From Chthoniobacteraceae bacterium (GTDB taxonomy: Bacteria; Verrucomicrobiota; Verrucomicrobiia; Chthoniobacterales; Chthoniobacteraceae), in assembly GCA_031409335.1 (NCBI GenBank), contig JANNWY010000196.1, forward strand, positions 79,880 to 143,879: 64,000 nucleotides of DNA. Direction: 5' to 3'. Position numbers and translations under genes: made by a program. This document shows positions 3,212 to 53,564 of this stretch, one piece after another; position 1 is the stretch's first letter, and every line of letters begins with the position of its first letter. Under the pieces are notes generated by a model that was not told the origin of the DNA, did no database searches, and was given only the letters and a program-made list of their open reading frames with translations.

Positions 3212-3255
3212 CGCCTTTGCAGATGACGAGTCGTGGATTCCATTTGCCAGCCGCC

Positions 3256-6200
3256 ATGAGATTTTCCGCCGTCGCATTCGCCATCACCGCTTTTTCGATC
3301 CCTGCTTTGCGCGCGGCGGACGCGCCGGATTTCAATCGCGAGGTGCGGCCGATCCTCTCGAACTATTGCTTCAAATGCCACGGCCCGGATGACAAGACGC
3401 GGAAGGCAAAACTGCGGCTCGATGTGCGCGACGAGGCGCTGAAGCCCGCGAAGTCCGGCGACCACGCGATCGTGCCGGGGAACGTCAATGAGAGCGAACT
3501 GGTGACGCGCATTTTTTCCAAGGACGAGGACGAGCTGATGCCGCCGCCCGCGACGAAAAAGGAGATGACCGACCAGCAGCGCGATGTGCTGAAACGCTGG
3601 ATCGCATCGGGCGCGAAGTATGATGCGCACTGGGCATTCCTCGCGCCGAAGCAGGCCGTGGCGATTGCGGATTGCGGATTGCGGATTGCGGATTGGGAAA
3701 AGCGCAACGCCGCTCGCGGGGCGGAACTCAGGCGGCAGCAGGTGGCGCTGGAAAAATGGCCGGAGAATCCCATCGACGAGTTCGTGCTCGATCGACTCTT
3801 GAGAGAAGGACTCACCCCTTCGCCGGACGCTGATCCGCACACGCTTTGCCGCCGGCTTTACCTCGACCTCACCGGACTGCCGCCGACACCGGAGGAGGCG
3901 CAGGCCTTTGTGGATGGGTCCCATAGGTCGAATGGGTCCCATACGACCTATGAGCAACTCGTGGACAAGCTGCTCGCCTCGCCAAAGTACGGCGAACGCT
4001 GGGCCCGCCGCTGGCTCGATCTCGCGCGCTACGCCGACACGAATGGCTACGAAAAAGATCGCAACCGCAGCATCTGGCCGTGGCGCGATTGGGTGATCAA
4101 GGCGCTGAATGCGGACATGCCGTTCGATCAATTCACGATCGAACAACTCGCGGGTGATCTGCTGCCAAATGCGACGCCCGATCAGATCGTCGCGACCGGC
4201 TTTCACCGGAACACGATGTTGAATGAAGAAGGAGGCATCGATCCGCTGGAGTTTCGTTTTCACGCGATGACCGATCGGATGGCGACGACGGGCGTGACGT
4301 GGATGGGCCTCACGGTCGGCTGCGCGCAGTGCCACACGCACAAGTTCGATCCGATCCAGCACCGCGAGTATTACCAGATGATGGCGTTCCTGAATAACGC
4401 CGACGAGCCGGAGTTCGATTTACCCGATCCGACGGCGGCCGAGCGTGCAAAGAAGAATGCAGAGCGCGTGACGAAGCTGCTCACAGAACTGCCCGACAAG
4501 TGGCCGGTGGATGCGGGCGACGCGCGCTGGGAGTCGCCGCGTCCGGTGGAGGTAAAGACGGAGTCGGGCGAAGTGCCGAAGCTGCTCGACGATAGTTCCG
4601 CGCTCTTCGCCGCGCCGGGGCCTGCCGCGGATGTCTGCACGTTTGTTTTTGAAACGGAGACGACCGGCATCGACCGCGTGAGGCTCGAAGCGCTGACCGA
4701 TGATTCGCTGCCTGCGAAAGGGCCGGGCCGGGTCTCCCACGGAAACTTCGTGCTGACCGAAATCGTGGTGATGGCTGCACCAAAGTCGGCGCCCGAGAAG
4801 ATGGAGCGCATGGCGATCGTAAGCGGGACGGCGGATGCGGAGCAGGACACTTTCCCGATCGGGAATGCCTTCGACGGAAACGATGCGACGGGTTGGGCCG
4901 TGCATGCGCCGGGCAAACCGCTGAATGCGCCGAAGACCGCGGTCTTCACCTTGAAGCAGCCAGTTGGATTTCCTGGCGGCACCCGGATCGTCGTGCGGCT
5001 CGAACAAAAGCACGGAGCCGCGCACACGATCGGGCGTCCGCGATTGAGCTTTGGCGCGCCCGCGGGCGAGCTGAAGCCGGTGACCGAGCGGCGGGGCGAG
5101 ATCGTCGAGAAAAAATTTGCCGAATGGCTGGCGCGGGAGCGCTCCCGGACAGTCGCGTGGACGGTGCTCCGCCCTGTGGAGGCGAAATCGAATATGCCGC
5201 TGCTCACGTTGCAGCCCGATGGGTCGATTTTTGGAAGCGGCGACATCACGAAGGCGGACACCTACGATTTGAAATTCACGAACGTCCCGCGCGGCATCAC
5301 CGCGATCCGACTGGAGGCGCTGCCCGATGAACGCCTGCCGAATCATGGACCGGGGATGACCTATTACGAAGGACCGAAGGGCGACTTTTTTCTCGGTGAA
5401 TTCCAACTCAGCGCGGGCGGGCAGTCGGTGAAGTTCAGCAAAGCCACCGAGACATTTTCCAAGAACGCGATGGGTGGCACTCCAGCGCCGGCGGCGCTCG
5501 CCATCGACGGCGATCCGCAGACCGGCTGGTCCACCGGCGGGCGCGAGGGGCAGGAAAGCGATGCCGTGTTCCGGCTCGCGGCACCGCTCGGCGAGGCGCG
5601 CGAGCTTTCGCTGAAGATGATGTTCGGGCGCCACTACGCTTGTTCGCTCGGGCGCTTTCGGATTTCCGTCACCAACGATCCGCGGGAGATCGAGGCCCGC
5701 GAGATTCCGGATGAAATCGAGCGTCTGCTCGTGATTCCCGAGACCACGCTGACGAATGCCCAGCGCCAGGAACTGCGACAGCATTTTCTTCTCACCGCGC
5801 CAGAACTCGCCGCCGCACGTGCGGAGATCGACAACTTGCGCAAGGCCCCGTCTGCCTTCGCGTCGACTCTCGTTCTCCGCGAGCGCCCGCCGGAAAATCC
5901 GCGCCCGACCTTCATCCACAATCGCGGCGAATTCCTGCAGCCGACGGATCGCGTCGAGCCGGGCGTTTTTGGGTTCCTTCCTGCGTTGCCGGACAAGGCT
6001 AAACCCGATCGTCTGGCCTTCGCGCGCTGGCTCGTGTCGCCGGAGAATCCGCTGACCGCGCGCGTCACCGTGAACCGCCAGTGGGCGATCCTGTTTGGGC
6101 GCGGGCTGGTGCGAACCACGGAGGATTTCGGGTATCAGGGCGAGTCGCCTTCGCATCCGGAATTGCTCGACTGGCTCGCGGTCGAATTCGTGAAGCAAGG

Positions 6201-6924
6201 CTGGTCGCTGAAAAAGCTGCACCGTCTGATCGTAACCAGCGCGACCTACCGGCAGTCCTCGCGCGTGACGCCGAAATTGCTGGCGAAAGACGCCGAGAAT
6301 AAATGGCTCGCCCGCGGACCCCGCGGACGGCTGGACGCCGAAGTCATTCGCGATTCCACGCTGCGCGCCGCCGGATTGCTCTCCGGAAAAATCGGCGGTC
6401 CGAGCGTCCGCCCGCCACAACAGGAAGGCGTGAGCGAAGTCGCCTACGGCGGCGGAAGATGGGACGCGAGCGCGGGCGAAGATCGCTACCGCCGCGGGCT
6501 CTACACCTTCATCAAGCGCACCGCCCCCTACGCGATGCTCACGACCTTCGACGCCCCGACCGGCGAAGCCTGCATCGCCCGCCGCGACGTTTCCAATTCC
6601 CCGCTGCAAGCCCTCACGCTACTCAACGACATCGTCTTCATCGAAGCCGCGCAGGCGCTCGGGAAGACGCTCGCGAGCCAGCCCGGCAGCATCGACGAGC
6701 GCATCGCATCGCTCTTTCGCCAAGTCCTCACGCGCCCGCCGACCGCGGATGAAACGGCGCTGCTCGCCAAGTTTTTCGTGACGCAAAAAGCGCGCTTCGT
6801 TTCAAACGAACTCGATGCCAAAGCCATCGCCGGCGAAGGCACCGGCGACGTGAATGAACGCGCCGCGTGGACGGCGCTGGCGCGGGCGATTTTCAATCTG
6901 GATGAAGCGGTGACAAAAGACTGA
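3256..6924 (+). CDS. Planctomycete-type cytochrome c protein (PSCyt1 + DUF1549/PSCyt2 + DUF1553/PSD1) with two inserted discoidin/galactose-binding-like domains
   Basis: Motifs DFNREVRPILS..CFKCHGPD, YGERWARRWLDLARYADT, CAQCHTHKFDP, NPLTARVTVNRQW, HPELLDWLA and PLQALTLLN, plus a signal peptide. Confidence 0.9.
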   Translation: MRFSAVAFAITAFSIPALRAADAPDFNREVRPILSNYCFKCHGPDDKTRKAKLRLDVRDEALKPAKSGDHAIVPGNVNESELVTRIFSKDEDELMPPPATKKEMTDQQRDVLKRWIASGAKYDAHWAFLAPKQAVAIADCGLRIADWEKRNAARGAELRRQQVALEKWPENPIDEFVLDRLLREGLTPSPDADPHTLCRRLYLDLTGLPPTPEEAQAFVDGSHRSNGSHTTYEQLVDKLLASPKYGERWARRWLDLARYADTNGYEKDRNRSIWPWRDWVIKALNADMPFDQFTIEQLAGDLLPNATPDQIVATGFHRNTMLNEEGGIDPLEFRFHAMTDRMATTGVTWMGLTVGCAQCHTHKFDPIQHREYYQMMAFLNNADEPEFDLPDPTAAERAKKNAERVTKLLTELPDKWPVDAGDARWESPRPVEVKTESGEVPKLLDDSSALFAAPGPAADVCTFVFETETTGIDRVRLEALTDDSLPAKGPGRVSHGNFVLTEIVVMAAPKSAPEKMERMAIVSGTADAEQDTFPIGNAFDGNDATGWAVHAPGKPLNAPKTAVFTLKQPVGFPGGTRIVVRLEQKHGAAHTIGRPRLSFGAPAGELKPVTERRGEIVEKKFAEWLARERSRTVAWTVLRPVEAKSNMPLLTLQPDGSIFGSGDITKADTYDLKFTNVPRGITAIRLEALPDERLPNHGPGMTYYEGPKGDFFLGEFQLSAGGQSVKFSKATETFSKNAMGGTPAPAALAIDGDPQTGWSTGGREGQESDAVFRLAAPLGEARELSLKMMFGRHYACSLGRFRISVTNDPREIEAREIPDEIERLLVIPETTLTNAQRQELRQHFLLTAPELAAARAEIDNLRKAPSAFASTLVLRERPPENPRPTFIHNRGEFLQPTDRVEPGVFGFLPALPDKAKPDRLAFARWLVSPENPLTARVTVNRQWAILFGRGLVRTTEDFGYQGESPSHPELLDWLAVEFVKQGWSLKKLHRLIVTSATYRQSSRVTPKLLAKDAENKWLARGPRGRLDAEVIRDSTLRAAGLLSGKIGGPSVRPPQQEGVSEVAYGGGRWDASAGEDRYRRGLYTFIKRTAPYAMLTTFDAPTGEACIARRDVSNSPLQALTLLNDIVFIEAAQALGKTLASQPGSIDERIASLFRQVLTRPPTADETALLAKFFVTQKARFVSNELDAKAIAGEGTGDVNERAAWTALARAIFNLDEAVTKD
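3663..3696 (+). repeat. Tandem heptamer (GATTGCG)x4 plus a partial copy inside the PSD1 CDS
   Basis: Read directly: gattgcg gattgcg gattgcg gattgcg gattgg. Confidence 0.9.
3914..3952. repeat. In-frame palindromic repeat element inside the PSD1 CDS
   Basis: ATGGGTCCCATA occurs twice at 18-nt spacing. CATAGGTCG (3922-3930) is the reverse complement of CGACCTATG (3944-3952). Confidence 0.8.
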
Positions 6925-6987
6925 CGGCGGGTCCTCCGCGGCTTTCGGCACGATGTGAAAGCGGTGAAGGAATCACCGCAGTCCAGA
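6925..6987. repeat. REP-like intergenic palindrome
   Basis: AAA-GCGGTGA-aggaa-TCACCGC-AGTCCAGA forms a 7-bp stem at 6961-6979. A degenerate opposite half (cggcgg...ccgcggctttc) lies just after the stop. Confidence 0.45.
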
Positions 6988-7074
6988 GCCTTCGGCGGCA
7001 CCGATATTTCCCGTCGCGCGCGCCGGATTCAAGGAAAGCTGGAAGTCGCGGTTTGAATGTTGGACCCTCGCCAA

Positions 7075-9129
7075 ATGCACGTGATCCCCACCTTTCTCAG
7101 ACGGTTCATCAGCGCGGGACTCGCGCTCGCTTTTCCCGCGACCGGCGACGCCGGCGGCTCGCTCCCGGCTGGCTTCAGCGAATCCGTCTTGGTCTCCGGC
7201 CTCACTCAGCCGGTGAGCATCGCGTGGGCGCCGGATGGCAGCCAGCGGCTCTTCGTCACCGAGAAAGCTGGCGGCATTCGCGTGATCCGAAATGGCGCGC
7301 CGCTCGCGACCCCGTTCGCCATTTTTCCTCAGCTCTACACGCAGAGCGAATGCGGCGTCCTCGGGCTGTGCTTCGATCCAAATTACGTCGCGAACCGCCA
7401 CGTGTATGTCTTCGTCACGATCTCCGCTTCGGAGCAGCGCATCGTGCGTTTCACCGATGTCGGAAACCGCGGCACCGAGCGCACGAATATCCTGACGGGC
7501 TTGCCGACGCTCGGCGTGAACCACAACGGCGGCGCGCTGGGCTTTGGCCACGATGGAAAACTGTACTGGGCAATCGGCGACAACGGCGCGAAGCGCGGGG
7601 TCGATGGCGATCTGGCGAGCCTCGCGGCGAAAGTGGGGCGCGCGAATGCGGACGGCAGCGTGCCTTTGGGCAATCCCTTCGCCGACGGCTCCGGGCCGAA
7701 TAACGACTACATTTGGGCGACGGGTTTTCGCAATCCGTTCACGATGACTTTCCAGCCGCGCTCAGGAAAACTCTGGCTGAATGTGGTCGGGTCGAATGCC
7801 GAGGGACAGACCGTTCCGAACAGCGGCCCTGGCTACGAGCAGATCTTCGCGCTCAATGCGGGCGAAGACGGCGGCTACGATGACTACGAGGGAAACCAGC
7901 CGAATGGCAGCCGCTACAACACGCCCTTCGCGCGGCCCTTTGCGCATCCGGCTTTGCAGTATAGAACGAGGCCGTTGACCGGCGGCGCGGTGGGCGTGCA
8001 GACGCCTGTTCAGGTGCTCGGGATTTCGCGCTCGACCGGCGTGGATGTCGTTCTGACCGCCACGCCCCATCCGTATTTCACGGGAAACGTCGTGCGGATC
8101 ACCGGCACAACCGACGCGACTTTCGACCGCACGTTCGTGGTTCGATCGGTGCCGAGTGCGACGACGTTCACCGCGTTCGATGCCGGAGCCGATGGCAGCG
8201 CGAGCGGCGGACAGGCGGCGGCGCTCTCCTTTGGCAGCAGCATCACGGGCGGCACATTTTATGACAGCAGCGCTTTCCCGGCTGGATCCCGAGGCAACTT
8301 TTTCTTCGGCGATTTCACCAGCGGCCTGCTGATCCGCGCGAAAGTCAATGAAAGGGGCAAAACCTCCGATGTTTCAGTCTTCAGCACGGGCCAGGGCTCG
8401 CCCGTCGATCTCGCGGTCGGGCCGGATGGCGCGCTTTACGTTGCCGACTTCGCCGCGGGAGCCATCCGCCGGATCGCGTGGACGCAAGCGCCCGCCGACC
8501 TCCTCGTCACGCCCACCGTTTTCAAAATGCGCGAAGGCGGACAAGCAAACTTCGCCGTGCGGCTCGGCAGCGCGCCGATCGTCCCGGTCGTCGTGACGAC
8601 GCACGGCGCGTCGCAAAATCAAAACGCGGTCGTCACCGCGGGTGAAATGCTCACCTTCAACGCGACGAACTGGAACGTCCCGCAGCCCGTCACGATCGCC
8701 GCCGCCACCGACGCGGACGACGATGACGAAAGCAGCGAGTTCGTTCTCACCGCGCCGGGACTCGCGGCGGAGACGGTGAGCGTGAGCATCACGGACACGA
8801 GCGCTGAAGCGCCGCTGCTTTCGGTGAATACTTTGACCATCAATGAAGGCAGCGGCGGCAATGTTTTTGTGAGCCTGCCGCAGCGACCCGCGGGCAATGT
8901 GACGCTCAGCGTGCGGCGCACTTTGGGAATCGCCGCGCGCGTCGTCCACGGTGGGGCGCTCGTGTTCACTCCGGCAAATTTTGCGACGCCTCAGCGCGTT
9001 ACGATTTACGCGAATCAGGACGTGAATACGCGGGATGCGGTCGTGCGTTTCATCATCGGCGGCCGCGGCTACACGGCGCGCGGGATCACCGTCAACGCGC
9101 TCGACAACGATCCGCTGCGCGCGCCTTGA
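7075..9129 (+). CDS. Secreted PQQ-dependent glucose/sorbosone dehydrogenase-family beta-propeller with C-terminal Calx-beta/Ig-like repeats
   Basis: Motifs LFVTEKAG, ECGVLGLCFDPNY, NHNGGALGFGHDGKLYWAIGD, WATGFRNPF and VDLAVGPDGALYV. The tail has LTFNATNWNVPQPVT and LVFTPANFATPQRVT. Confidence 0.85.
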   Translation: MHVIPTFLRRFISAGLALAFPATGDAGGSLPAGFSESVLVSGLTQPVSIAWAPDGSQRLFVTEKAGGIRVIRNGAPLATPFAIFPQLYTQSECGVLGLCFDPNYVANRHVYVFVTISASEQRIVRFTDVGNRGTERTNILTGLPTLGVNHNGGALGFGHDGKLYWAIGDNGAKRGVDGDLASLAAKVGRANADGSVPLGNPFADGSGPNNDYIWATGFRNPFTMTFQPRSGKLWLNVVGSNAEGQTVPNSGPGYEQIFALNAGEDGGYDDYEGNQPNGSRYNTPFARPFAHPALQYRTRPLTGGAVGVQTPVQVLGISRSTGVDVVLTATPHPYFTGNVVRITGTTDATFDRTFVVRSVPSATTFTAFDAGADGSASGGQAAALSFGSSITGGTFYDSSAFPAGSRGNFFFGDFTSGLLIRAKVNERGKTSDVSVFSTGQGSPVDLAVGPDGALYVADFAAGAIRRIAWTQAPADLLVTPTVFKMREGGQANFAVRLGSAPIVPVVVTTHGASQNQNAVVTAGEMLTFNATNWNVPQPVTIAAATDADDDDESSEFVLTAPGLAAETVSVSITDTSAEAPLLSVNTLTINEGSGGNVFVSLPQRPAGNVTLSVRRTLGIAARVVHGGALVFTPANFATPQRVTIYANQDVNTRDAVVRFIIGGRGYTARGITVNALDNDPLRAP

Positions 9130-9173: not shown

Positions 9174-9200
9174 CCGCCGCAGTTCTTTGCGAGTCATAGT

Positions 9201-9392
9201 CAGTGAATGGATGAAAGGAATTCCGTGAGAATCGGAAACAGTTGCGCTGCTGTAACTGGATACGACTTCCCAATGCCAATCTCTTAAAACCGATTCGTCG
9301 GTCGCGGAGGTGAAGGCGGGAAGGAGGTGTGTGGAGACCGGGTGACCGGGCTTCGCCGAATGCCAGAAGTCAGAACATTTCCACCGTTCACT
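9201..9392 (+). ncRNA. Cobalamin (B12) riboswitch
   Basis: Core TGAAAGGAA-TTCCG-TGAGAAT-CGGAA-ACAG-TTGCGC-TGCTGTAA, then GGGAAGG (about 9318) and a B12-box-like GCCAGAAGTCAGAAC (9362-9376). Closing stem AGTGAATGG/CCGTTCACT. It lies directly upstream of a DUF4465 gene. Confidence 0.85.
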
Positions 9393-9529
9393 CTCATTCG
9401 TCCCCGCGTGTGCGGGCAGGCGAAAAACCTTCTTCGCAAGAAAGAAGAATGAGGGCACCACATCGCTCGCCGCGCGGCATTCGCCGTCGCGTCGTGGGTT
9501 GGTCTCTCCATCACAAACAAGAGACATCC

Positions 9530-10330
9530 ATGAAAATGAAATCCATCGCCGTCGCGGGCATCCTCGCGTCGGTTTCCATCGTCAACGCAACCGCCGCCGT
9601 CATCGACTTCGACGACCTCACCGTGCCACTGAGTGGCTACGAAAACGGGGCGAATCTCGCGGGCGGCTTCACCAGCCGGGGCGCGGGCTTTAACAATTCC
9701 TACGAGAGCATGTTTGGCTCGTGGGACGGGTTTGCCTACTCGACCAACGGCAATACCACGACGGCCGGCTTCCTGAATCAATACAGCGTCTTCACTGGCG
9801 GCGGCAGCGATGCGAACGGCAGCGTCGTGGCGGGCAATGTGTTTGCGCTCGGCTTCGTGGGATTCACCGTGCCGGCGATCTCGCTCGCGGCGGATCAATC
9901 GCGCCCGCTTTCGCTGCGCGTGACGAATACGACCTACGCGGCGCTTTCCATGGCGAATGGCGACGCGTTTTCAAAAAAGTTCGGTGGCGTCAGCGGCAAT
10001 GATCCCGACTTTTTCAAACTCACCGTGACCGCGCTGGATGCGAGCGATGCGCTGATCGGGACGCTGGATGTCTTCCTCGCCGACTTCCGTTTTGCCGACA
10101 ACTCGCAGGACTACATCCTGGATACTTGGACGGCAGTGGACCTTTCGTCGTTCGGCAGCGGAGTGGGTGAATTGCAATTCACGCTCGCCTCTTCCGACAA
10201 CGGCCTGTTTGGCATGAATACACCCGCGTATTTCGCGATCGATAACGTCGTCGCCGTGCCGGAGCCGGGCGCGGTCGCACTCTTGCTGACGGCCCTCGCC
10301 GCGATCGGTTCACGCCGTCGTTGGAGCTGA
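9530..10330 (+). CDS. DUF4465 (BtuJ-family, putative B12-binding) protein with PEP-CTERM anchor
   Basis: Motifs SWDGFAYS, VTNTTYAALSMANGDAFSKKFGG, LADFRF, WTAVDLSS and SSDNGLFGMNTPAYFAIDN. Signal peptide at the N-terminus; VPEPG-TM-RRR tail. Confidence 0.85.
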   Translation: MKMKSIAVAGILASVSIVNATAAVIDFDDLTVPLSGYENGANLAGGFTSRGAGFNNSYESMFGSWDGFAYSTNGNTTTAGFLNQYSVFTGGGSDANGSVVAGNVFALGFVGFTVPAISLAADQSRPLSLRVTNTTYAALSMANGDAFSKKFGGVSGNDPDFFKLTVTALDASDALIGTLDVFLADFRFADNSQDYILDTWTAVDLSSFGSGVGELQFTLASSDNGLFGMNTPAYFAIDNVVAVPEPGAVALLLTALAAIGSRRRWS

Positions 10331-10332
10331 AA

Positions 10333-11610
10333 ATGAAAGCCACCCCGCTCCATCTGCTGGCGCCCGCCGTGATGTTTTTTCACGGCGGGCTGCTCGCGGG
10401 TCCGTACTCCGCGGGCCTGAACGATCCGGCGAACGCGAGTGATGCGCCGGTGCCGGGATTTGTGGGGCTCGACGGGATCGGCGGCGTGCCGTTTGAGGAC
10501 GAATTTGGCGAGCCCATCAATGCGCGAAACTATGTGAATCCGCTTTTTTTTGGCTGGGCGTCCTCGTTTTCCGGGTACTCGCGCCCGGCCGACGTAAGCC
10601 AATTTTGGGGCAATGCGGGAAAATCACTCGGGCCGGTGACGGGCAACAATATCCACATCGTTTCCCTCGGCGATCTGAGCGCCGCGCAGATCGGCGGCGG
10701 CGCGCTGCCGGGCTCGATCACGCTGCATTTTGCGAATCCGATTCGCAATCTGACCGGCGCGGATTTTACCGTTTTTGAAAATGCGCTGATCGAGATCGGC
10801 AGCGGGATTTTCGGTGAACTCGGATACGTCGAGGCGTCGAGCGACGGCGTGAATTTCGTCCGCTTTCCCTCGGCCTCGCTCACCGCGGCCGCAGTCGGCG
10901 CGTATGGCACGTTTGATCCGACGGATGTCTTCAATCTCGCTGGTAAACATGTGAACGGGGACGGCGATTCGTGGGGCACGCCGTTCGATCTCACGGCGGT
11001 CGGGCTCGCGAGCGCGAGTCACATTCGCATCGTGGATATTCCGGGTAGCGGCGCGTTTCGCGACAGCGCGAACCGCCCGATTTACGATGCGTGGGTGACG
11101 TTCGGCTCGGGCGGCTTCGATCTGGAAGCGGTCGGCGCGATTTCGCGCGCGATCGCGTTCGATCAATGGCAAACCGTGCGCGGACTCGTCGGCGCGCAGC
11201 GCGGTGCGGCCGTGGATTTGGACCGGGACGGTGTTCCGAATTTCCTCGAATACGCCTTCGCGCGACTACCCGATCGCGTGGACGAAACTCCGACTCCCAC
11301 GACCACGGAAATCGCCGCCGGGCGACTCGTGATCACCTTTACCCGCGATGAACGCGCGTCCGATCTCGTGTATGAAGTGCAGGCCGCGAACGATCTCGCC
11401 GCAAACGCGTGGACAACGATCGCGCAAAGCACGGCAGGCGCGCCGACCGTGGCTGCGGGCGCGTTCACGCCGGCGATCACCGAGACGAGTGCGAGCGCGA
11501 TCGCGAGCGTCGGCGTGCTGCGCAAAGTGCGCGTCGCGGATGTGCAGACCGTGGCCGGAAATGCGCGTCGCTTTTTACGCATCAAAGTGACAAGCATCCC
11601 GGTGCCATGA
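10333..11610 (+). CDS. Secreted cell-surface protein, BtuH-like N-terminal domain plus verrucomicrobial C-terminal domain
   Basis: Motifs IVSLGD..GSITLHF..IRN..GADFTVFENA, YVEASSDG, GTPFDL, HIRIVD and GFDLEAV. The C-terminus reads DLDRDGVPNFLEYAF...RFLRIKV. It starts 2 nt after the previous stop. Confidence 0.65.
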   Translation: MKATPLHLLAPAVMFFHGGLLAGPYSAGLNDPANASDAPVPGFVGLDGIGGVPFEDEFGEPINARNYVNPLFFGWASSFSGYSRPADVSQFWGNAGKSLGPVTGNNIHIVSLGDLSAAQIGGGALPGSITLHFANPIRNLTGADFTVFENALIEIGSGIFGELGYVEASSDGVNFVRFPSASLTAAAVGAYGTFDPTDVFNLAGKHVNGDGDSWGTPFDLTAVGLASASHIRIVDIPGSGAFRDSANRPIYDAWVTFGSGGFDLEAVGAISRAIAFDQWQTVRGLVGAQRGAAVDLDRDGVPNFLEYAFARLPDRVDETPTPTTTEIAAGRLVITFTRDERASDLVYEVQAANDLAANAWTTIAQSTAGAPTVAAGAFTPAITETSASAIASVGVLRKVRVADVQTVAGNARRFLRIKVTSIPVP

Positions 11611-12431
11611 GCGCGCGCGCACAACGGAGATCAGCACAGCCACGAATCGGTGCGTTCACGTTGGTCGAGTTGCTCGTGGTGATTGGTCTCATCGCGGTGC
11701 TGGCCGCGGTGCTCCTGCCTATCCTTCATGCCGCAAAGGTGAGTTCGTACGCGGCGCGCAGCACGAACAGCCTGCGTCAACTCGTGGCCGCAAACATCAC
11801 GTATTCCGCGGAGAAAGGCTTCTACGTTCCCGCGGACAACCGCCGGAACAATCGGCGCTGGCACGGTGGCCGCACTTCGCCGAAAGAGCCATTCGATCCG
11901 GCGCGGGGATTCCTCGCGGAGTATCTGGGAAAATCGCGCGCGGTCACGCCGGACCCCTTTTTCAGCGACATGCTGAAGGACGGAAAGACCTTCGAGGAAG
12001 GCACGGGTGGCTATGGCTACAACGCGTCTTACGTCGGCGGCACTCCCGAGTGGGGGTGGAATCCGGACGGGACAAGGCAATCCGCCGTGCCCGCGGCGAT
12101 CGAGCGTCCGGCGACGACGATGATGTTTGCGACTTCCGCCTATGCGCGTGAAAACGGCGTGCAGGAGTATCCCTACGCCGAGCCGCCGTTCTGGGATTTC
12201 GGCGACGGCCCGGTCGCGCATCGCCCGTCGCCGACAGTCCACTTTCGCTACAACGGGCGGGCGCTCGTCGGCTGGTGCGACGGCCATGTGAGTTCCGAAG
12301 AAAGAGTCGTGCGCGCGGACGGCGAAAATCCACACTCGGGAAATGCGGAGGCGCAGAATCTCGGGTGGTTCGGCTCGGACGAGGAGAACGGCTTTTGGAA
12401 TCCGCGCCGAGTCGGCCCCAGGGGGCGCTGA
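11607..12431 (+). CDS. Type IV pilin/pseudopilin-like protein (prepilin N-terminal cleavage motif, H-X9-DG-type C-terminus, DUF1559-like)
   Basis: Motifs GAFTLVELLVVIGLIAVLAAVLLP, STNSLRQL, GYGYN and HFRYNGRALVGWCDGHV. ATGA overlap with the upstream gene. Confidence 0.85.
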   Translation: MSARAQRRSAQPRIGAFTLVELLVVIGLIAVLAAVLLPILHAAKVSSYAARSTNSLRQLVAANITYSAEKGFYVPADNRRNNRRWHGGRTSPKEPFDPARGFLAEYLGKSRAVTPDPFFSDMLKDGKTFEEGTGGYGYNASYVGGTPEWGWNPDGTRQSAVPAAIERPATTMMFATSAYARENGVQEYPYAEPPFWDFGDGPVAHRPSPTVHFRYNGRALVGWCDGHVSSEERVVRADGENPHSGNAEAQNLGWFGSDEENGFWNPRRVGPRGR

Positions 12432-12439: not shown

Positions 12440-14077
12440 TCAGGCTGCGACCGCCGACTGCGATTCCTCCGCGCCGGACGCCACCAGCACGGCGCGGCGC
12501 AACTCGGCGGCGCTGACGGGTTTTGCGACGATGAGGGCGATGCCCTCGGGCAAGGTTCCGCGCGCCTGCATTTCATCGCCAAATCCGGTCAGCAAAATCA
12601 CCGGCGTGCCGGGGGCGGTGCCGTGGATGGCGCGCGCGAGTTGCTCGCCGCTCATTCCCGGCATGGATTGGTCAGTGACGACGAGATCGAATCGCGCGGG
12701 ATTGAATTTCGCCATCGCATCGTTTCCGTCGCACGCGATTTCCACGGAGTGGCCGTCGGCGCGCAGATATTCGGCGATCAGTTCGCAGATGATTTCCTGA
12801 TCGTCGGCGACGAGGATGCGGAGGTTCCGTGAAGTCCCGGTTTCCACCGATTCCACGCAGACGTGCGATTGCGGGGCGGCCAGCGGCAGGCTGATGTGAA
12901 AGGTCGTGCCGCGGCCGATCTCGCTCGTGATTTCGATCGTTCCGCCATGCCGCTGGATGATGCCATACACCACCGACAGGCCGAGCCCGGTTCCGCGTTC
13001 GCCCTTCGTCGTGAAGAACGGTTCGAGACAGCGCGCGCGATCTTCTTCGCTCATGCCCGTGCCGGAATCGGCCACCGCGACAGTCGCGAATTCCCCCTGC
13101 ATTCCCGTGGTCGCGACGATCTTCCCGCCATTCGGCATCGCATCGACCGCGTTGAAAATCAGATTGGTCAAAACCTCGCGCAACTCCGCCGCATTCCCGG
13201 CGATCGGCGCGGATGCCTGCAGGTTCGTGAGCACTTCGATTTGCACGCCGTCCGAGCGCGCCTTGCCTTTCCATTTCGGCGCGGTGAGCGAGACGGCTTG
13301 GGTCACGGTCTCGTTGAGATCGACGGGCACGCGCACGTCGTTGCACGTCGCAGGCCGGTAAAATTCCCGCAGCCGGCTGACGACGTGCGTCGCATCCTGC
13401 GCGGCGGCGATCATGTGGCGCAGATACGCGATTTCGCGCTCCGGCCCGCTTTGCAGCATGTATGGGAGCAGCAGCTCGCCGTAGCCGAGCACCATCGTCA
13501 GCGCGTTGTTGAAATCGTGCGCGATGCCGCCGGCCATCATGCCGAGCGCGCTCAGGCGTTCCTGCTTCACCACATGCTCCTGCGTCGAGCGGAGTTCCGC
13601 GAGCAATTCCTCCAGCCGCGCCGTCCGTTCGCGGACCAACTCTTCCAGACCGAGGTTCTGCTTTTGCAATTCAAGATGCAGAAAGCGGTTTTCGAGCAGG
13701 TTGTTGATGCGCAGGACGACTTCAAAATTATCCAGCGGCTTGGTGACGAGATCCTTCGCGCCAGCGGCGAGCGCGCGGCGTTTGGTGTCGATCGTGACAT
13801 CCGCGGTGAGCACGAGGATCGGCAGATAATCCTCGGGATCGACGGCGGCCTTCAATTGCTCGATCACCGCGAAACCATCGAGGTGCGGCATGTGCAGATC
13901 GAGCAGCACGAGGTCCGGGCGAAATTCAAAATACAGCGCCAGCGCCGTCCGCGAATCCGTCGTGCTTTTCACCGCCGCGCAGCCAAACATTTCCAGCACG
14001 CGTTCCAGCAACCGGATGTTCGACGGCTCATCATCGACGATGAGGACGCGGGCCTTGTTGAGCAATGGTTGAGGCAT
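12440..14077 (-). CDS. Cytoplasmic hybrid histidine kinase (REC-HisKA-HATPase-REC)
   Basis: First REC: VLIVDDE/LLDLHMP. Kinase core: GGIAHDFNN, NLIFNAVDAM, DSGTGM, PFFTTK, GTGLGL. Second REC: LVADDQ/VTDQSMP. Confidence 0.92.
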   Translation of the reverse strand: MPQPLLNKARVLIVDDEPSNIRLLERVLEMFGCAAVKSTTDSRTALALYFEFRPDLVLLDLHMPHLDGFAVIEQLKAAVDPEDYLPILVLTADVTIDTKRRALAAGAKDLVTKPLDNFEVVLRINNLLENRFLHLELQKQNLGLEELVRERTARLEELLAELRSTQEHVVKQERLSALGMMAGGIAHDFNNALTMVLGYGELLLPYMLQSGPEREIAYLRHMIAAAQDATHVVSRLREFYRPATCNDVRVPVDLNETVTQAVSLTAPKWKGKARSDGVQIEVLTNLQASAPIAGNAAELREVLTNLIFNAVDAMPNGGKIVATTGMQGEFATVAVADSGTGMSEEDRARCLEPFFTTKGERGTGLGLSVVYGIIQRHGGTIEITSEIGRGTTFHISLPLAAPQSHVCVESVETGTSRNLRILVADDQEIICELIAEYLRADGHSVEIACDGNDAMAKFNPARFDLVVTDQSMPGMSGEQLARAIHGTAPGTPVILLTGFGDEMQARGTLPEGIALIVAKPVSAAELRRAVLVASGAEESQSAVAA

Positions 14078-24137: not shown

Positions 24138-25280
24138 ATGACTGTGATGCCTCTAAAATCGCGCCTGCTTTTACTCCTGACTGCCGCCACGCTCACCGTT
24201 CCGGTTTCCGCCCAGACGGAGCCCGCGCTGGAGCCATCCGTCGTCGCCGTGGCAAAGGCGATGCCTGCCGTGGTCAACATCAATACCGAACGGGTGGTGC
24301 AGCATACGGTGCGCGATCCGCGGGATGAGTTTTTTAACAATTTTTTCGGCGGGCCGATGCGTCCGCCGCGGCTGGTGAAGCAGACGGTGCAGAGCCTCGG
24401 CTCGGGGTTCATCGTGGATGCGTCAGGCTTCATCGTGACGAATGAACATGTGGTGCAGCGGGCGGCGGATTTGAAGATTTCGGTGACGACGAATGATGGG
24501 AAGACTTACATCGCCAAGTATATCGCGGGGTCGCCGGAGACGGACCTCGCTTTTCTAAAGATCGAGTCGAAGGAGAAACTGCCATTCATTGAACTCGCGG
24601 AACTTTCGCCAAATCTGCTCGGGCAGACGGTGCTGGTGCTGGGAAATCCGCTGGGCTACGGGAGTTCGGTGGCGCGGGGGATTTTGTCGGCGAAGGCACG
24701 GTCGGTGTCGGTGGATAACAAGGATTACAAAGACCTGGTGCAGACGGATGCGGCGATCAATCCGGGGAATTCGGGTGGGCCGGTGGTGGACTTGAGCGGG
24801 AAGCTGGTGGGGGTGAGTTCGGTGAAGATGGCGTTCACGCCGCAGGGAGTGCCGACGCAGGGGCTGGGATTTGCGATTCCGGGAATTGCGGTGCGCGATC
24901 ATGTGGCGGAATTTCGCAAGGTGGCCGCGGGGCAGAAGAGCTCGAAGGCGCGGGCGACGCAGAGCCGCGTGCGGCAGTATTTCGGGCTGCAACTCCAGGA
25001 TATGACGCCAGAGCTGGCGGAGACGATGGGCTACGAGGCGGATGCGGGTGTGGTGATCGCCGATGTGGAAGCGGGATCGCCGGCGGATCGGGCGGGGTTT
25101 AAGCGCGGGCTTGTCATCAGCCAATTGGGGCGCTATCGCGTCACCTCCTCCAAACAGGTCGAGGACCTTTTGGAGCCGGTCAGCACGGGTTCTGTCGTGG
25201 ATTTCACGGTCGGACTCGTGCGGACGGCCGGTCGGCGTGAGTTCGTGTCATGGACCCCCGTGACGATGAATGCGCGCTGA
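24138..25280 (+). CDS. HtrA/DegP-family serine protease with one PDZ domain (start 24120-24147)
   Basis: Motifs PAVVNI, LGSGFIV, TNEHVV, TDLA and QTDAAINPGNSGGP, plus PDZ motif GSPADRAG. Confidence 0.92.
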   Translation: MTVMPLKSRLLLLLTAATLTVPVSAQTEPALEPSVVAVAKAMPAVVNINTERVVQHTVRDPRDEFFNNFFGGPMRPPRLVKQTVQSLGSGFIVDASGFIVTNEHVVQRAADLKISVTTNDGKTYIAKYIAGSPETDLAFLKIESKEKLPFIELAELSPNLLGQTVLVLGNPLGYGSSVARGILSAKARSVSVDNKDYKDLVQTDAAINPGNSGGPVVDLSGKLVGVSSVKMAFTPQGVPTQGLGFAIPGIAVRDHVAEFRKVAAGQKSSKARATQSRVRQYFGLQLQDMTPELAETMGYEADAGVVIADVEAGSPADRAGFKRGLVISQLGRYRVTSSKQVEDLLEPVSTGSVVDFTVGLVRTAGRREFVSWTPVTMNAR

Positions 25281-25303
25281 GTTTTCCTCCACCACCGAAC
25301 CGC

Positions 25304-26236
25304 ATGATTAAAGTCGAAAACCTCACGAAACGTTATTCCGGCTTTACCGCGATCAAGGACCTCAGTTTCGAGGTGGCGAAGGGCGAAATCGTTGGCTTTC
25401 TCGGGCCAAATGGCGCGGGCAAAACGACGACGATGCGCATTTTGGCTGGGTTTCTGCCGGCGACGAGCGGGCGGGCCTCGATAGCGGGGTTCGATGTGTT
25501 TGAGCAAAGTCTGGAGGCGCGGAAACGGATCGGGTATTTGCCGGAAAATACGCCGCTGTATCCCGAGATGCGGGTGAATGAATATCTGCGCTACCGGGCG
25601 GATTTGAAGGGCGTCGAGGGTCGGAAGGTGAAGGAGCGCGTGGGCGATGTGATCGACCAGTGCAGCTTGAAGGAAAAGGAGCGGGCGATCATCGGAACGC
25701 TCTCGAAAGGGCAGCGGCAGCGGGTCGGGCTGGCGGATGCGCTGGTGCATGATCCCGAGTTGCTGATCCTCGACGAACCGACGATCGGGCTCGATCCGAA
25801 TCAAATCCGGCAGGTGCGCGAGCTGATCAAGAATCTCGCGAACAAACGCACGGTACTGATCTCGACGCACATCCTGCCCGAGGTGGAAATCATGTGCTCG
25901 CGCGTGATCGTGATCCATCAGGGGCAAATCCGCGCGAGCGATACGGCGGAGAATTTGTTGAAAAATCACCGCGCCGCCGGCAACATGCGGGTGGAGGCGA
26001 AGACGGGTGGGACGAATGGGCGCGAGGCGTTGCTCGGGCTGCCAGGGGTGAAGGATGTGACCGAAGAGCAGGACGGGGAATTCAGCATTTTCAATCTCCG
26101 ACTCGAAGCAAACGCCGATCCGGCGGAAGCGGTGATGAATCTGGCGATTTTCCGCCGCTGGAATGTGCGCGAACTCGCCCGGCGTCGCGCGACGCTGGAA
26201 GATGTCTTCGTCGAACTAACCCATTCGGATAGCTAA
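25304..26236 (+). CDS. ABC-2 transporter ATPase (GldA-like)
   Basis: Motifs GPNGAGKTT, LSKGQRQRVG, LILDEPTIGLDP and STHIL. Confidence 0.92.
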   Translation: MIKVENLTKRYSGFTAIKDLSFEVAKGEIVGFLGPNGAGKTTTMRILAGFLPATSGRASIAGFDVFEQSLEARKRIGYLPENTPLYPEMRVNEYLRYRADLKGVEGRKVKERVGDVIDQCSLKEKERAIIGTLSKGQRQRVGLADALVHDPELLILDEPTIGLDPNQIRQVRELIKNLANKRTVLISTHILPEVEIMCSRVIVIHQGQIRASDTAENLLKNHRAAGNMRVEAKTGGTNGREALLGLPGVKDVTEEQDGEFSIFNLRLEANADPAEAVMNLAIFRRWNVRELARRRATLEDVFVELTHSDS

Positions 26237-26241
26237 AAACT

Positions 26242-26304
26242 CTTCCTCTTAATCTTAATCTTCCTCCAAATTCCGATAGTCGGCGGAGGAAGATTAAGAG
26301 GAAG
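26242..26304. repeat. Intergenic inverted repeat built from AATCTT/AAGATT units
   Basis: CTTCCTCTTAATCTT(AATCTT)CCTCC ... GGAGGAAGATTAAGAGGAAG: 20-bp arms with one extra hexamer on the left. Confidence 0.75.
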
Positions 26305-26330
26305 CGGAAGAACCCACTGACCCACCTTCC

Positions 26331-27086
26331 ATGAAAACCTTCTTCACCCTGCTCGACCGCGAAATGAAGAGCTTCTTCCACTCGCCGATCGCTTACGTCG
26401 TCCTGTTTTATTTCCTGGTGCTAACCGGCTTCAATTTTTTCTTCCAAGTTAGTTTCCTGAATCGCGGCCCGACGGAGATCACCGTCGTGGAAGCCGTCTT
26501 CAACACGGTCATTTTCTGGTTCCCGTTCGTGCTGATCTTTCCATTGATTACCATGCGGACTTACTCTGAGGAATTCCGCATGGGGACGTTTGAAACACTG
26601 ACGACCGCTCCCGTGAGCGACTGGCAGGTGGTCCTCGCGAAGTTCTTTGGCGTGCTGTTCTTCTACATCGTCCTGTGGGCTCCCAGCTTTAGTTACTTCG
26701 CCATCTTCCAACTCATCACCCAGCAGCAGGCAGCGAATGCCGCGGGCGCCTACTATGGCAGCTATCTGCTGATCCTATTGATCGGTATGTTTTATATCTC
26801 GATCGGCTGCGTGGCTTCGGCGCTCACGAGGGATCAGGTGAACGCCGCGATGATTAGTTTTTCGGTGATCACACTCTGCTTCTTCGCCGGGCTGCTCACC
26901 TTCGTGATGAACGTCACCGATCCCGCGCTGAAGGACATCAACACTTATATCTCCGCCGTGGAGCATATGGGTGACTTTTCCAAAGGCATGATCGATACGC
27001 GGCCGATCGTCTGGTATCTGTCACTGACGGTCCTGATGCTTGTCATTAACTTCCAAGTCTTCCAATACCGGAAGTGGAAGTCCTAG
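26331..27086 (+). CDS. ABC-2 transporter permease (GldF-like)
   Basis: Motifs REMKSFFHSPIAY and PLITMRTYSEEFRMGTFETLTTAPV..VVLAKF, with multiple TM segments. Confidence 0.88.
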   Translation: MKTFFTLLDREMKSFFHSPIAYVVLFYFLVLTGFNFFFQVSFLNRGPTEITVVEAVFNTVIFWFPFVLIFPLITMRTYSEEFRMGTFETLTTAPVSDWQVVLAKFFGVLFFYIVLWAPSFSYFAIFQLITQQQAANAAGAYYGSYLLILLIGMFYISIGCVASALTRDQVNAAMISFSVITLCFFAGLLTFVMNVTDPALKDINTYISAVEHMGDFSKGMIDTRPIVWYLSLTVLMLVINFQVFQYRKWKS

Positions 27087-30597: not shown

Positions 30598-32385
30598 ATG
30601 CCTCGAACCCCATGGCTCCTCGTTTTCGGAACGGCGATTGGCGCTGTCGTAGTCGGTTTCTTTTTGGGGCAGAGTCTCAGTGAAAAGCCGTTCGGTCCGA
30701 CTCAAGCCGTGCAGTTGAGGGAAAGCAGCCCGTCACTTTCCGGAAACGTGCCGGTCGAGCGTGGCAGCGCGGAAGCGGGTCGGGAAGCAGTGGTGACTTC
30801 CGCTCAACCGCTCGGCGGGTCGATCGACGACGCGATTGTTCGGATGATGAAAGCGCCGAACAATCCAAGGAGCTATCGCGATCTCCTGCTGGCCACCGCG
30901 CGGTTGGAATTGGCGGATATTCCCGCTGCTTTGGCGCGCGCGAGGAGCCAGGGAAATGCGGGCCGCAATTCCTCGGTGCTCTCCGCGATCATCTCGCGCT
31001 GGGCGGAACTCGATCCAGGGGCCGCGACGCAGTATGCGCTCACCATGCCTGAGCGGAATATGGGCAGCTACCTGATCGCCTCCGCGGCCAGCGAATGGGC
31101 AAGGGCGCAACCGCAAGCTGCCATGACGTGGGCGCTCGGCCAGCCGGTCAGTTCGCAAAAGCGCACCTTGATCGAAGGCATCGCCAGCGGACTCGCGGAG
31201 ACCGATCCCGAGGGAGCGCTCCGTTTCCTGGGCAACAACCCAGGCGAATGGCAGGGAAGCGGTGCCATCTCCCGGATTTTTTCCACATGGGCGGAGCGGG
31301 ATGGAGCCGCGGCGGCGCAACGCGCGCTGGCGCTACCGGTAAATCCAAATCGCACGAGCGCGCTGAACGCGGCCATCGCCGCGTGGGCGGAGCGCGAGCC
31401 CGGCAATGCCTTCGCTTTCGCGAACCAATTGCCCGAGTCCGCGAGCAAGGCGAACGCTGTCATGTCTGCCCTGCAAACGTGGGTGGGCGTCGATCCCGAT
31501 GGCGCGGGCGCGCAGGCGCTCGCGATGCCGGAGGGTGAGATGCGGGAACGTGTCTTGAGCCAGGTCGTGGGGCAGTTGGCGCAGCGCGAACCGGCAAGCG
31601 CGCTGCGTTTCATCGAGCGGATGCCGGCCGGGGAAAGCCGCGATGAGATGCTTGGCACGATCGTGCAGCAAATCGCGGCGACGGATCCGAGGAATGCCGC
31701 CGGCCACCTGAACAGCTTCCCGCAAGGCGCCGCCCGGGCACAGGCCACGACCGGGATCGCCCACGTCTGGGCTCGGCTGGACGGCCCCGCCGCGCTGGCC
31801 TGGGCGCAGAGCCTGCCGGAGAGCGAGGAAAAGGGCGTGGCGCTCAGCGAAGTCTTCGGTGAAATGAGTCGCATGAATCCACAGCAGGCGGCGACGCTTG
31901 CGCTCGGGAAACTGACGGGCGCGGCGCAACTCATGGCGACTGGGACGATCGCGCGCCGCTGGGTGCGCACGGATTCCGCGTCCGCCACCGCCTGGGCAGC
32001 CAGCCTGCCTGCGGGTGAAGTGCGGGATGGCGCTTACAAGAATCTGCTGACCAGTTGGGCTGAGCAGGATCTGATCAAGGCTGGCACTTTCCTAAACAAT
32101 CTGGCACCCGGCTCCACGCGCGACGCGGCCATCATCGGCTATACCTCGAAGGCTGTCGTCGCCGACCCGGAAGGCGCCGCGGTCTGGGCGGCGAGCATCG
32201 CGGAACCGGCCATGCGCGAGACCGCGCTCGGACAGGTGGTCCAGCGCTGGCGGGCGCAGAGCCCGGTGGATGCGAACGCATGGCTCACCCAGACGCAGGT
32301 GCTCAGCGCGGATGCGAAGGCGAAGATATTGGAGCGCGGCAATAATGTTTCCAACCGGGTGTACTTCCAGACCCTCTCCGAGTGA
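30598..32385 (+). CDS. Membrane-anchored alpha-helical repeat protein (W..(D/E)P..A..WA..LP repeats)
   Basis: N-terminal hydrophobic helix followed by more than ten imperfect repeats of about 31 aa. Confidence 0.7.
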   Translation: MPRTPWLLVFGTAIGAVVVGFFLGQSLSEKPFGPTQAVQLRESSPSLSGNVPVERGSAEAGREAVVTSAQPLGGSIDDAIVRMMKAPNNPRSYRDLLLATARLELADIPAALARARSQGNAGRNSSVLSAIISRWAELDPGAATQYALTMPERNMGSYLIASAASEWARAQPQAAMTWALGQPVSSQKRTLIEGIASGLAETDPEGALRFLGNNPGEWQGSGAISRIFSTWAERDGAAAAQRALALPVNPNRTSALNAAIAAWAEREPGNAFAFANQLPESASKANAVMSALQTWVGVDPDGAGAQALAMPEGEMRERVLSQVVGQLAQREPASALRFIERMPAGESRDEMLGTIVQQIAATDPRNAAGHLNSFPQGAARAQATTGIAHVWARLDGPAALAWAQSLPESEEKGVALSEVFGEMSRMNPQQAATLALGKLTGAAQLMATGTIARRWVRTDSASATAWAASLPAGEVRDGAYKNLLTSWAEQDLIKAGTFLNNLAPGSTRDAAIIGYTSKAVVADPEGAAVWAASIAEPAMRETALGQVVQRWRAQSPVDANAWLTQTQVLSADAKAKILERGNNVSNRVYFQTLSE

Positions 32386-34025: not shown

Positions 34026-34066
34026 GAAAGCGTCCCGACACCCGACTAACATCCCACCATTCCACC

Positions 34067-35638: not shown

Positions 35639-35677
35639 GCGGGTATGTGAGGTTCCTCGCAACAGTTCACCCAATTC

Positions 35678-47379: not shown

Positions 47380-47421
47380 AAACATACCGGTTCAGGGGTG
47401 CCATTCGAGGGTCGTGGAAAT

Positions 47422-53526: not shown

Positions 53527-53564
53527 GTTGTATTGGGGATGTTGGTTTTCGAATAGGGAGAGCC

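Follow-up and report, generated by a model that had tools for sequence, protein, structure and literature searches.

A riboswitch-led vitamin B12 operon of a Chthoniobacteraceae bacterium carries a prepilin gene where a TonB-dependent receptor is expected

Vitamin B12 uptake by diderm bacteria is taught as the work of BtuB with TonB, followed by BtuFCD. Here we describe an operon of a Chthoniobacteraceae bacterium in which a Btu-type capture relay has a pilin where the receptor is expected. The operon lies in a 64,000-nucleotide stretch of contig JANNWY010000196.1 (positions 79,880 to 143,879), which we call the window. It consists of a cobalamin riboswitch followed by a gene for a DUF4465 (BtuJ-type) protein (gene 1), a gene for a protein that is BtuH-like by predicted fold (gene 2) and a gene for a prepilin-type protein (gene 3). 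We hold with high confidence, on good support, that the operon scavenges B12, and we consider it likely that the pilin takes a working part in this. We further propose that the pilin would stand in for a TonB-dependent receptor at the outer-membrane step of B12 capture, because in related loci either a pilin gene or a receptor gene adjoins the BtuH-like gene, never both. Drawn as it is from the pattern of gene slots, this proposal has in our estimate a probability of roughly 0.5. The source genome (G000) is Chthoniobacter-like, comprises 7.9 Mb in 326 contigs and is 98% complete; numbers beginning with G, C and L are our handles for genomes, contigs and loci.

We annotated 56 Verrucomicrobiota loci with custom profiles, 43 of them chosen by likeness to gene 2 and 13 as the best pilin matches not yet covered. 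Among the 43, a pilin ortholog adjoins the BtuH-like gene in 26, a TonB-dependent receptor lies directly upstream of the BtuH-like gene, with no pilin, in 12, and neither is found in 5; no locus has both. The pilin gene is usually directly downstream of the BtuH-like gene, with exceptions in L126, where it is upstream, and L129, where one gene lies between. The five strongest-scoring of the 13 pilin-chosen loci adjoin a BtuH-like gene and the other eight do not. Including the window, the pilin-type arrangement comprises 32 loci in 31 genomes from 15 families, and the receptor-type arrangement comprises 12 loci in 11 genomes from 5 families. An earlier reading of the window, made from the sequence only, had cast the pilin as a specific subunit for B12, and a conserved, dedicated partner of the BtuH-like gene is what this distribution bears out. 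The idea that the pilin gene has no role in B12 and is co-transcribed through an accident of position is already hard to hold, and we consider it very improbable. One genome (G347) keeps both binder genes without the pilin, but the pairing is kept in 15 families with pilin identity down to 34%, adjacency persists where gene order has changed (L126), the same order occurs in a Planctomycetota locus, and in the window itself the start of gene 3 overlaps the stop of gene 2.

Whole genomes were also searched for the missing partner. No pilin ortholog was found at E 1e-15 in any of the 11 receptor-type genomes. A full-length ortholog of the BtuH-linked receptor (at least 272 bits) was found in none of the 28 pilin-type genomes searched, as compared to all 11 receptor-type genomes. 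Four of these 28 have a moderate receptor match elsewhere, five have weak N-terminal matches and 19 have nothing at E 1e-10. The two arrangements also share what follows. A gene for a BtuF-type protein (PF01497) lies directly after the pilin gene in G065 and in the planctomycete G468, and at least six receptor-type loci have such a gene no more than a few kb from the receptor. The gene order is binders, then receptor or pilin, then periplasmic binding protein; the pilin-type order thus parallels the receptor-type order, since the BtuF-type gene follows the pilin in these two genomes as it follows the receptor elsewhere. Beside a different pilin gene, that of G366, a small gene encoding Cys_rich_CWC and DUF5522 domains is found directly downstream (L123:5717-6286).

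In the window, gene 1 (9530-10330, plus strand, 266 amino acids) starts with ATG at 9530. Gene 2 (10333-11610, plus strand, 425 amino acids) begins 2 nucleotides past the gene 1 stop, and gene 3 (11607-12431, plus strand, 274 amino acids) shares an ATGA overlap with the gene 2 stop. These coordinates confirm the three tightly coupled genes that the sequence-only reading had described. That reading had also stated that the unit ends at a convergent gene, which proves to encode, on the minus strand (12440-14077), a hybrid histidine kinase/response regulator, and that the operon lacks btuB and btuFCD; indeed, we found no TonB-dependent receptor and no B12-type ABC subunit inside it. A Pfam scan of the other 33 large open reading frames (ORFs) of the window found no TonB-dependent receptor, no B12-type transporter and no pilus assembly genes near gene 3. 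The sole ABC genes of the window (25250-27086) are of the ABC-2 type and lie 13 kb away. The locus had been given a start at 9201; the locus is real, but that start sits 10 nucleotides inside the riboswitch aptamer.

The leader had been taken for a cobalamin riboswitch, with a search against the Rfam covariance models suggested as the check, and this search returned a match above the gathering score. The RF00174 aptamer occupies 9191-9402 on the plus strand (43.6 bits versus a gathering score of 31.5; E 1.2e-7) and spans the model in full (positions 1-189 of 189). No other RF00174 match was found in the G000 genome by a search that scored 150 of 652 first-look candidates. The rest of the leader, from the aptamer to the start codon (9403-9529, plus strand), is a candidate translational expression platform. 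In the RNA fold of 9385-9545 (minimum free energy -56.6 kcal/mol, z -3.09 against shuffles), a predicted hairpin at about 9492-9533 encloses the gene 1 AUG, and no terminator-like site was found on the plus strand of the leader. Thus, the riboswitch likely acts at the level of translation, and we infer that this control is ligand-dependent. RF00174 is also found directly upstream of the pilin-type operon in 21 of the 31 genomes, and in 16 of those 21 it is the only RF00174 match of the genome. The operon of G366 has an AdoCbl-II match just under the cut-off (35.1 versus 36.5 bits). On the receptor side, the operon of G081 has RF00174 directly upstream of its DUF4465 gene.

Gene 1 is predicted to encode a signal peptide, a DUF4465 beta-jellyroll (residues 63-241) and a PEP-CTERM sorting tail. 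The protein matches PF14717 at E 2.2e-49 and 168.7 bits, against a cut-off of 25, over profile positions 3-176 of 176. Its tail matches the PEP-CTERM model TIGR02595 (20.8 bits versus a cut-off of 16), while the Pfam PEP-CTERM model stays below threshold (17.3 versus 20.7). The best solved relative is 9hmu, a B12-bound DUF4465 protein of Coraliomargarita (E 3.2e-27), and relatives with solved B12 complexes are 9hmu, 9fct and 9i2l. No cysteine, as the sign of a lipobox, is present in the signal peptides of gene 1 or gene 2. By sequence, gene 1, the sole DUF4465 gene of the G000 genome, is a member of the Pfam DUF4465 family but is not of the Bacteroides surface-lipoprotein type. In vitro B12 binding is described for DUF4465 proteins of several phyla, two from Verrucomicrobiota included, and residues of the DE and HI loops are conserved in DUF4465/BtuJ proteins (PMC13398666, available text). 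The earlier assignment of gene 1 to a known B12-binding kind is upheld by the DUF4465 match and the B12-bound closest relative, and binding by gene 1 itself is predicted by family.

In many of the related loci the first gene is not a DUF4465 gene. Instead, it encodes a protein of 330-435 amino acids whose profile resembles NHL-type six-bladed beta-propellers, with matches to Pizza designs, the PknD sensor domain and DFPase, and a PEP-CTERM end is common. Profile matches of this kind lie at L120:8916-10040, L011:6956-7960, L123:8272-9381, L127:5910-6995, L110:1738-2754, L130:3149-4183, L133:8403-9419, L124:12203-13288, L163:4762-5910 and L140:9686-10993. They are found in pilin-type loci and in one receptor-type locus. 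From the profile matches, the NHL-type protein may play the role of the BtuG and BtuK propellers.

Gene 2 encodes a signal peptide, a BtuH-like domain defined by predicted fold (nucleotides 10390-11157, residues about 20-275) and a C-terminal beta domain (nucleotides 11215-11607, residues about 295-425) that many large secreted proteins of G000 have in common. As a single sequence it has no match in Pfam or NCBIfam, and phmmer against PDB sequences gave 0 matches; its ESM Atlas matches are all unnamed Verrucomicrobiota clusters. Its relatives nonetheless number more than 2,300, and a homolog encoded by Chthoniobacter flavus Ellin428 is 61% identical. From an alignment of 55 sequences, AlphaFold2 gave a model with a predicted local distance difference test (pLDDT) score of 93.8, and we compared this model by VIA-align, with no pre-filter, to one representative each of 48,161 PDB clusters. 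The top match of residues 73-272 was 7biz_B, BtuH2 with cyanocobalamin (Z 13.2, 158 residues, root-mean-square deviation 2.7), and the second was 8blw_B, the C-terminal domain of BtuG1 (Z 12.6, 161 residues, 20% identity). Next came generic discoidin/CBM32 jellyrolls at Z 10.4 and below. The alignment profile of gene 2 matched 8blw_B at E 0.0024 over about 100 residues and did not match 7biz. Foldseek with the whole two-domain model returned low-TM discoidin-type rows and, besides these, only 8blw_B.

A second line of evidence for gene 2 comes from gene fusions. The BtuH-like domain is fused to DUF4465 in 8 of the 26 long relatives scanned and to DUF4430 in one, and DUF4465 and the BtuH-like domain form a single ORF in 8 fetched loci. 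Because the top structural matches are both solved BtuH domains, and because of these fusions, the modeled N-terminal domain of gene 2 is BtuH-like by fold and tied to DUF4465. The sequence-only reading had likened gene 2 to a known B12-binding kind, and at the level of predicted fold this likeness is sustained, with BtuH domains as the two best matches. The C-terminal domain (about 130 amino acids, preceded by a DxDxDG-type stretch) also occurs at the C-termini of about 20 large G000 ORFs, and in the ESM Atlas it falls in unnamed Verrucomicrobiota clusters only. It is a candidate sorting or anchoring domain.

Gene 3 comprises a leader, a G/FTLVE motif (the slash marks the predicted processing site), a long N-terminal helix and an enlarged beta head. 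Its N-terminus, PRIGA/FTLVELLVV, has a short leader, the G and an E at +5, as expected of a class III signal, and scores 22.0 bits against PF07963 (prepilin N-methylation; cut-off 21.2). All 27 orthologs match the N_methyl model and E21 is invariant in 27 of 27. In the AlphaFold2 model (pLDDT 89.7), a helix of about 50 residues (19-70) is followed by the beta head, which at about 200 amino acids is around twice the usual pilin size and has many invariant aromatic and glycine residues. The best structural matches by VIA-align were PilA4 (Z 5.9), EpsG (5.0), ComP (4.6) and PulG (3.8), and nearly all of the top 20 are pilins or pseudopilins. Gene 3 shares with type IV pili, competence pili (ComP, ComGC) among them, and with type II pseudopili the class III signal, the long helix and a beta head, but differs from them in the size of its head, in the weakness of the structural match (Z at most 5.9) and in having no assembly genes nearby.

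The ortholog consensus HFRHxGxAxVxWCDGH (HFRH-x9-DG) fits the C-terminal H-X9-DG signature. Fifteen of the 27 orthologs match PF07596 (DUF1559) at E up to 1, with a best value of 1.4e-8; at that threshold the window copy goes unmatched. The window copy reads HFRYNGRALVGWCDGH: a Y replaces the H of the signature, and the invariant H that lies nearer is at X12. The label "DUF1559-like" that gene 3 had been given therefore fits loosely. Relative to the DUF1559/H-X9-DG family at large, gene 3 also stands apart as a member of a BtuH-tied subgroup. Linked pilins are 34-68% identical to gene 3, whereas its nearest paralog in G000 is 30% identical over 161 amino acids. We built a maximum-likelihood tree from 27 linked and 13 unlinked pilins. 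The linked pilins came out as one group, joined by just one unlinked row, which comes from a short contig, and a single clade for the linked pilins was not rejected (approximately unbiased test, p-AU 0.29). These sequences thus place the BtuH-linked pilins in a distinct, nearly monophyletic subgroup, which agrees with a dedicated pilin. In one genome (G044), a single 518-amino-acid frame (L145:7012-8568, minus strand) holds a BtuH-like domain, a PEP-CTERM tail and a complete prepilin with no stop between them, the junction reading RRKTASVRGG/FTLMEM. The frame may reflect a genuine fusion, the loss of a stop codon or a fault in the assembly; for a fusion, the membrane topology would be coherent.

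The pilin likeness of gene 3 also bears on the direction of transport. Pseudopilins of type II secretion push folded proteins outwards, and gene 3 might serve a type II secretion-like machine as its dedicated pseudopilin or adaptor and so bring both binders onto the cell or outside it, with B12 entering in some other way. The model of gene 3 matches the pseudopilins EpsG and PulG about as well as it matches true pilins, seven secretin matches are present in G000, and gene 2 has no recognised anchor, just its unnamed C-terminal domain. However, the 11 receptor-type genomes encode DUF4465 and BtuH-like proteins without a pilin ortholog at E 1e-15, which argues that export of the binders does not generally depend on the pilin, and gene 1 has its own sorting signal in PEP-CTERM. 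Additionally, the pilin gene occupies the receptor slot, between the binders and the BtuF-type gene in two loci, and export would leave the entry of B12 unexplained in a genome without a recognisable BtuB. On balance, we consider a pilin devoted to export of the binders unlikely.

The content of the G000 genome speaks to the need that such an operon would serve. Six matches to the B12-binding domain PF02310 were found, and CobS had 0 matches in the genome. For these reasons the organism seems to depend on corrinoid from outside, and beyond the three genes of this operon we found none under B12 regulation. For the inner-membrane step, no BtuF-type protein was found either, with 0 matches to PF01497 in the G000 genome. 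Such a protein is present in 22 of the 29 other pilin-type genomes and missing from 7. One could suppose that the pilin stays a single molecule anchored in the inner membrane, whose head binds periplasmic B12 and passes it to an inner-membrane transporter, the outer membrane being crossed through an unrecognised receptor or pore. The head of about 200 amino acids, beyond that of typical pilins, with its many invariant aromatic and glycine residues, would suit such a task; the missing PF01497 protein in G000 and in 7 of 29 other genomes, the Pfam identifier of DUF1559 (SBP_bac_10) and the presence in G000 of five TonB-dependent receptors of unassigned substrate all lean the same way. Yet 22 of 29 other pilin-type genomes hold a BtuF-type protein, which argues that the pilin is no stand-in for BtuF, and in G065 and G468 its gene directly follows the pilin gene. 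Moreover, the either/or pattern of the loci pairs the pilin with the receptor and not with BtuF. We therefore give a periplasmic carrier role for the pilin poor odds.

Because no BtuF-type protein was found in G000, we propose a DUF6580 membrane protein for its inner-membrane step, as a candidate B12 importer suggested by gene content. DUF6580 is present in 7 of 42 genomes, 6 of which have no PF01497, and 32 of the 35 genomes without DUF6580 hold PF01497. The DUF6580 genomes are close kin (families f1, f5 and f11), so few independent events lie behind this pattern. DUF6580 had no match in PDB sequences or NCBIfam, and a literature search found no paper on it. In three loci the DUF6580 gene lies beside or inside the operon (L120:10359-10940, L011:5932-6516 and L130:2594-3121). 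The gene of G000 (G000:C37:58907-59458; L136:13905-14492) comes after a transaldolase gene, with no riboswitch found at this site.

Outside Verrucomicrobiota, the BtuH-like domain is found in other company. Of 76 gene 2-like loci, mostly from other phyla, 32 have a TonB-receptor match in the locus and none has a pilin-profile match. Such neighborhoods are what one would expect if the BtuH-like domain generally serves TonB-dependent uptake of B12. Sampling 251 Planctomycetota genomes turned up DUF4465 in 3, at four loci. At all four, RF00174 lies directly upstream of the DUF4465 gene and a prepilin gene adjoins. The locus of G468 repeats the order of the window, with riboswitch, DUF4465, BtuH-like gene and pilin ortholog (E 4.7e-74). 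At the other three, the prepilin is a more remote one of the DUF1559 type and is divergently transcribed, and in one of these three the prepilin gene has a second riboswitch on its own strand. This locus (L181; G614:C36) has back-to-back cobalamin riboswitches, L177:647-772 (minus strand) and L177:977-1181 (plus strand), one leading into the DUF4465 gene and the other into the divergent DUF1559-type prepilin gene. At eight Planctomycetota loci chosen by likeness to the BtuH-like domain, there was no prepilin-motif ORF within 6 kb and no TonB-receptor match, and the planctomycete link to a pilin is thus seen solely at the four DUF4465 loci. The arrangement of riboswitch, DUF4465 and pilin, whose conservation across both phyla had been posed as a check, recurs in Verrucomicrobiota and, with the gene order of the window, at one planctomycete locus (G468).

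Placing the pilin in the slot of the receptor suggests the following sequence of events. When B12 is scarce, the leader would open and all three proteins would be made. Gene 1 would be held at the surface through its PEP-CTERM tail, and the proteins of genes 1 and 2 would bind extracellular corrinoids in the manner of BtuJ and BtuH of Bacteroides. After cleavage by a prepilin peptidase, the pilin would be built up as a short fibre or pseudopilus by a type II secretion or type IV pilus-like machine, for which the seven secretin matches are candidates. This fibre might then take a loaded binder, or B12 itself, through the secretin into the periplasm without TonB, and in G000 the DUF6580 membrane protein would be the candidate for the inner-membrane step. 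Competence pili are a functional analogy, in that they draw a bulky ligand through a secretin without TonB; they differ in that the ligand proposed here is a vitamin or a vitamin-loaded protein. In its widest form, the proposal is that bacteria of the Planctomycetota, Verrucomicrobiota and Chlamydiota (PVC) use a ligand-dedicated pilin, on a machine like that of type II secretion or type IV pili, to import B12 without TonB, replacing BtuB between the surface binders and BtuF. We put this forward tentatively, with the odds against it.

Several observations weigh against the pilin as a replacement for the receptor. Five TonB-dependent receptors are encoded in G000, with substrates not assigned. 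An earlier condition on the proposal had been that uptake should not be explained by a btuB elsewhere in the genome, and here the result is divided: the five receptors exist, but none reaches the BtuB equivalog cut-offs (TIGR01779, NF007926). Because the BtuH-linked receptors of relatives also miss these cut-offs, the test is compatible with a divergent BtuB. The G000 receptor closest to a BtuH-linked receptor scores 33 bits only. Among the pilin-type genomes, G099, G269, G077 and G023 (4 of 28) hold a moderately similar receptor elsewhere, and G269 has a second cobalamin riboswitch, about 4 kb upstream of this receptor. From these four genomes and the second riboswitch of G269, exclusion between pilin and receptor appears to hold at the locus but not strictly at the genome, and the two routes can coexist in one genome. 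Related genomes are not independent, and our counts overstate the number of separate events.

Other observations on the same side concern the parts themselves. The likeness of gene 2 to BtuH consists of a predicted fold and one weak profile match (E 0.0024), and its lead over discoidin/CBM32 jellyrolls is merely 2-3 Z units. For gene 3, the structural matches are weak (Z 5.9 or less) and Foldseek of the model returned nothing at E 1e-3. Its conserved motifs (RWHG, GGYGYN, HFR and W-DGH) are largely common to paralogs that are not BtuH-linked; few columns differ between linked and unlinked pilins (H86, W223, F96 and F129/E130), and no B12-specific site stands out in this comparison. RF00174 was not seen at the operon in 10 of 31 pilin-type genomes, with two of these loci cut by a contig end just upstream, and riboswitch scans of L124, L125, L126, L127, L128 and L133 found none even at E up to 0.1. 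Lastly, G347, a member of the family (97% complete, 6% contamination), encodes DUF4465 and BtuH-like proteins and has no pilin ortholog at E 1e-15. In its locus (L121; G347:C439:1-9000), secreted proteins of 517 and 849 amino acids follow the BtuH-like gene and no receptor is present; the single RF00174 match of this genome is on a contig other than that of L121.

Comparison with described systems separates what is familiar in this operon from what is new. The available text of PMC13616437 describes riboswitch-controlled Btu loci of Bacteroides thetaiotaomicron with BtuJ, BtuH, BtuG, BtuK, BtuB and BtuFCD, in which the surface binders BtuJ and BtuH are thought to pass B12 inwards; BtuH is often co-encoded with BtuB, and BtuH2 has conserved corrin-contact and Na/Ca-site residues. 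The operon of the window resembles this relay in having a cobalamin riboswitch over BtuJ (DUF4465)-kind and BtuH-kind binders, but it lacks BtuB, BtuG and BtuFCD. Its binders are non-lipoproteins, gene 1 with a PEP-CTERM tail and gene 2 with the unnamed C-terminal domain, and it has a prepilin gene, which is absent from the Btu loci described in PMC13616437 and PMC13398666. The predicted fold of gene 2 residues 73-272 is that of BtuH2 (7BIZ) and the BtuG1 C-terminal domain (8BLW chain B); unlike those domains, gene 2 shows marginal sequence likeness and has no PKD domains, lipobox or adjacent BtuB. Gene 1 shares its family and phylum with D5EK51 of Coraliomargarita akajimensis (9HMU) and with a Haloferula luteola homolog, for both of which in vitro B12 binding is described (PMC13398666). 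The genomic context described there for DUF4465 is co-location with TonB receptors, ABC transporters and beta-propellers, in contrast to the pilin found here, and the terms "pilin", "PEP-CTERM" and "Verrucomicrobi" occur nowhere in the main text of that source. As far as these two sources go, the binders and their B12 function in Bacteroides, as well as DUF4465 binding in Verrucomicrobiota, are already published (PMC13616437, PMC13398666). A full-text search, with subscription journals and supplements outside its coverage, found no paper on a link between pilin and cobalamin, on DUF1559 with cobalamin, or on a cobalamin riboswitch with a prepilin. What is new is that a pilin takes the expected place of the receptor in a capture relay of the Btu type.

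Other features of the window were noted in passing. Directly upstream of the riboswitch (3217-9129, plus strand) lie a gene for a 1235-amino-acid PSCyt1/PSCyt2/PSD1 (DUF1549/DUF1553) protein and, as the second gene of this stretch, one for a 690-amino-acid glucose/sorbosone-dehydrogenase-like protein. A PSCyt1/PSD1 gene paired with a sorbosone-dehydrogenase-like gene is typical of PVC genomes, and no B12 link was seen. On the minus strand, 42988-58691 holds three giant ORFs of 1465, 2178 and 1708 amino acids that are unrelated to the B12 operon. PATR repeats are found in the ORFs of 1465 and 2178 amino acids and in an adjoining ORF of 433 amino acids (41671-42972), while the ORF of 1708 amino acids has lamin-tail, CotH and laminin-G domains. 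Additional CotH genes, likewise unrelated to the operon, lie at 32382-37315.

For this organism, the significance lies in a B12-dependent genome in which CobS was not found and the only cobalamin-riboswitch target found is an operon without a transporter but with a dedicated pilin. Across the phylum, a pilin and a TonB-dependent receptor occupy one shared position in operons that otherwise resemble each other. If the pilin does perform the outer-membrane step, vitamin entry into a cell by this means would be new, and a first testable ligand would be at hand for a member of the DUF1559 prepilins; that family has undergone great expansion in the Planctomycetota and Verrucomicrobiota, with no function assigned to it. 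Should the pilin indeed stand in for BtuB, the DUF1559 family would be one of cargo-specific uptake pilins, with the BtuH-linked clade as the first whose ligand is known. It is an old idea that Planctomycetota and Verrucomicrobiota use fibres to pull large molecules inwards, and on this idea, too, such a pilin would bear.

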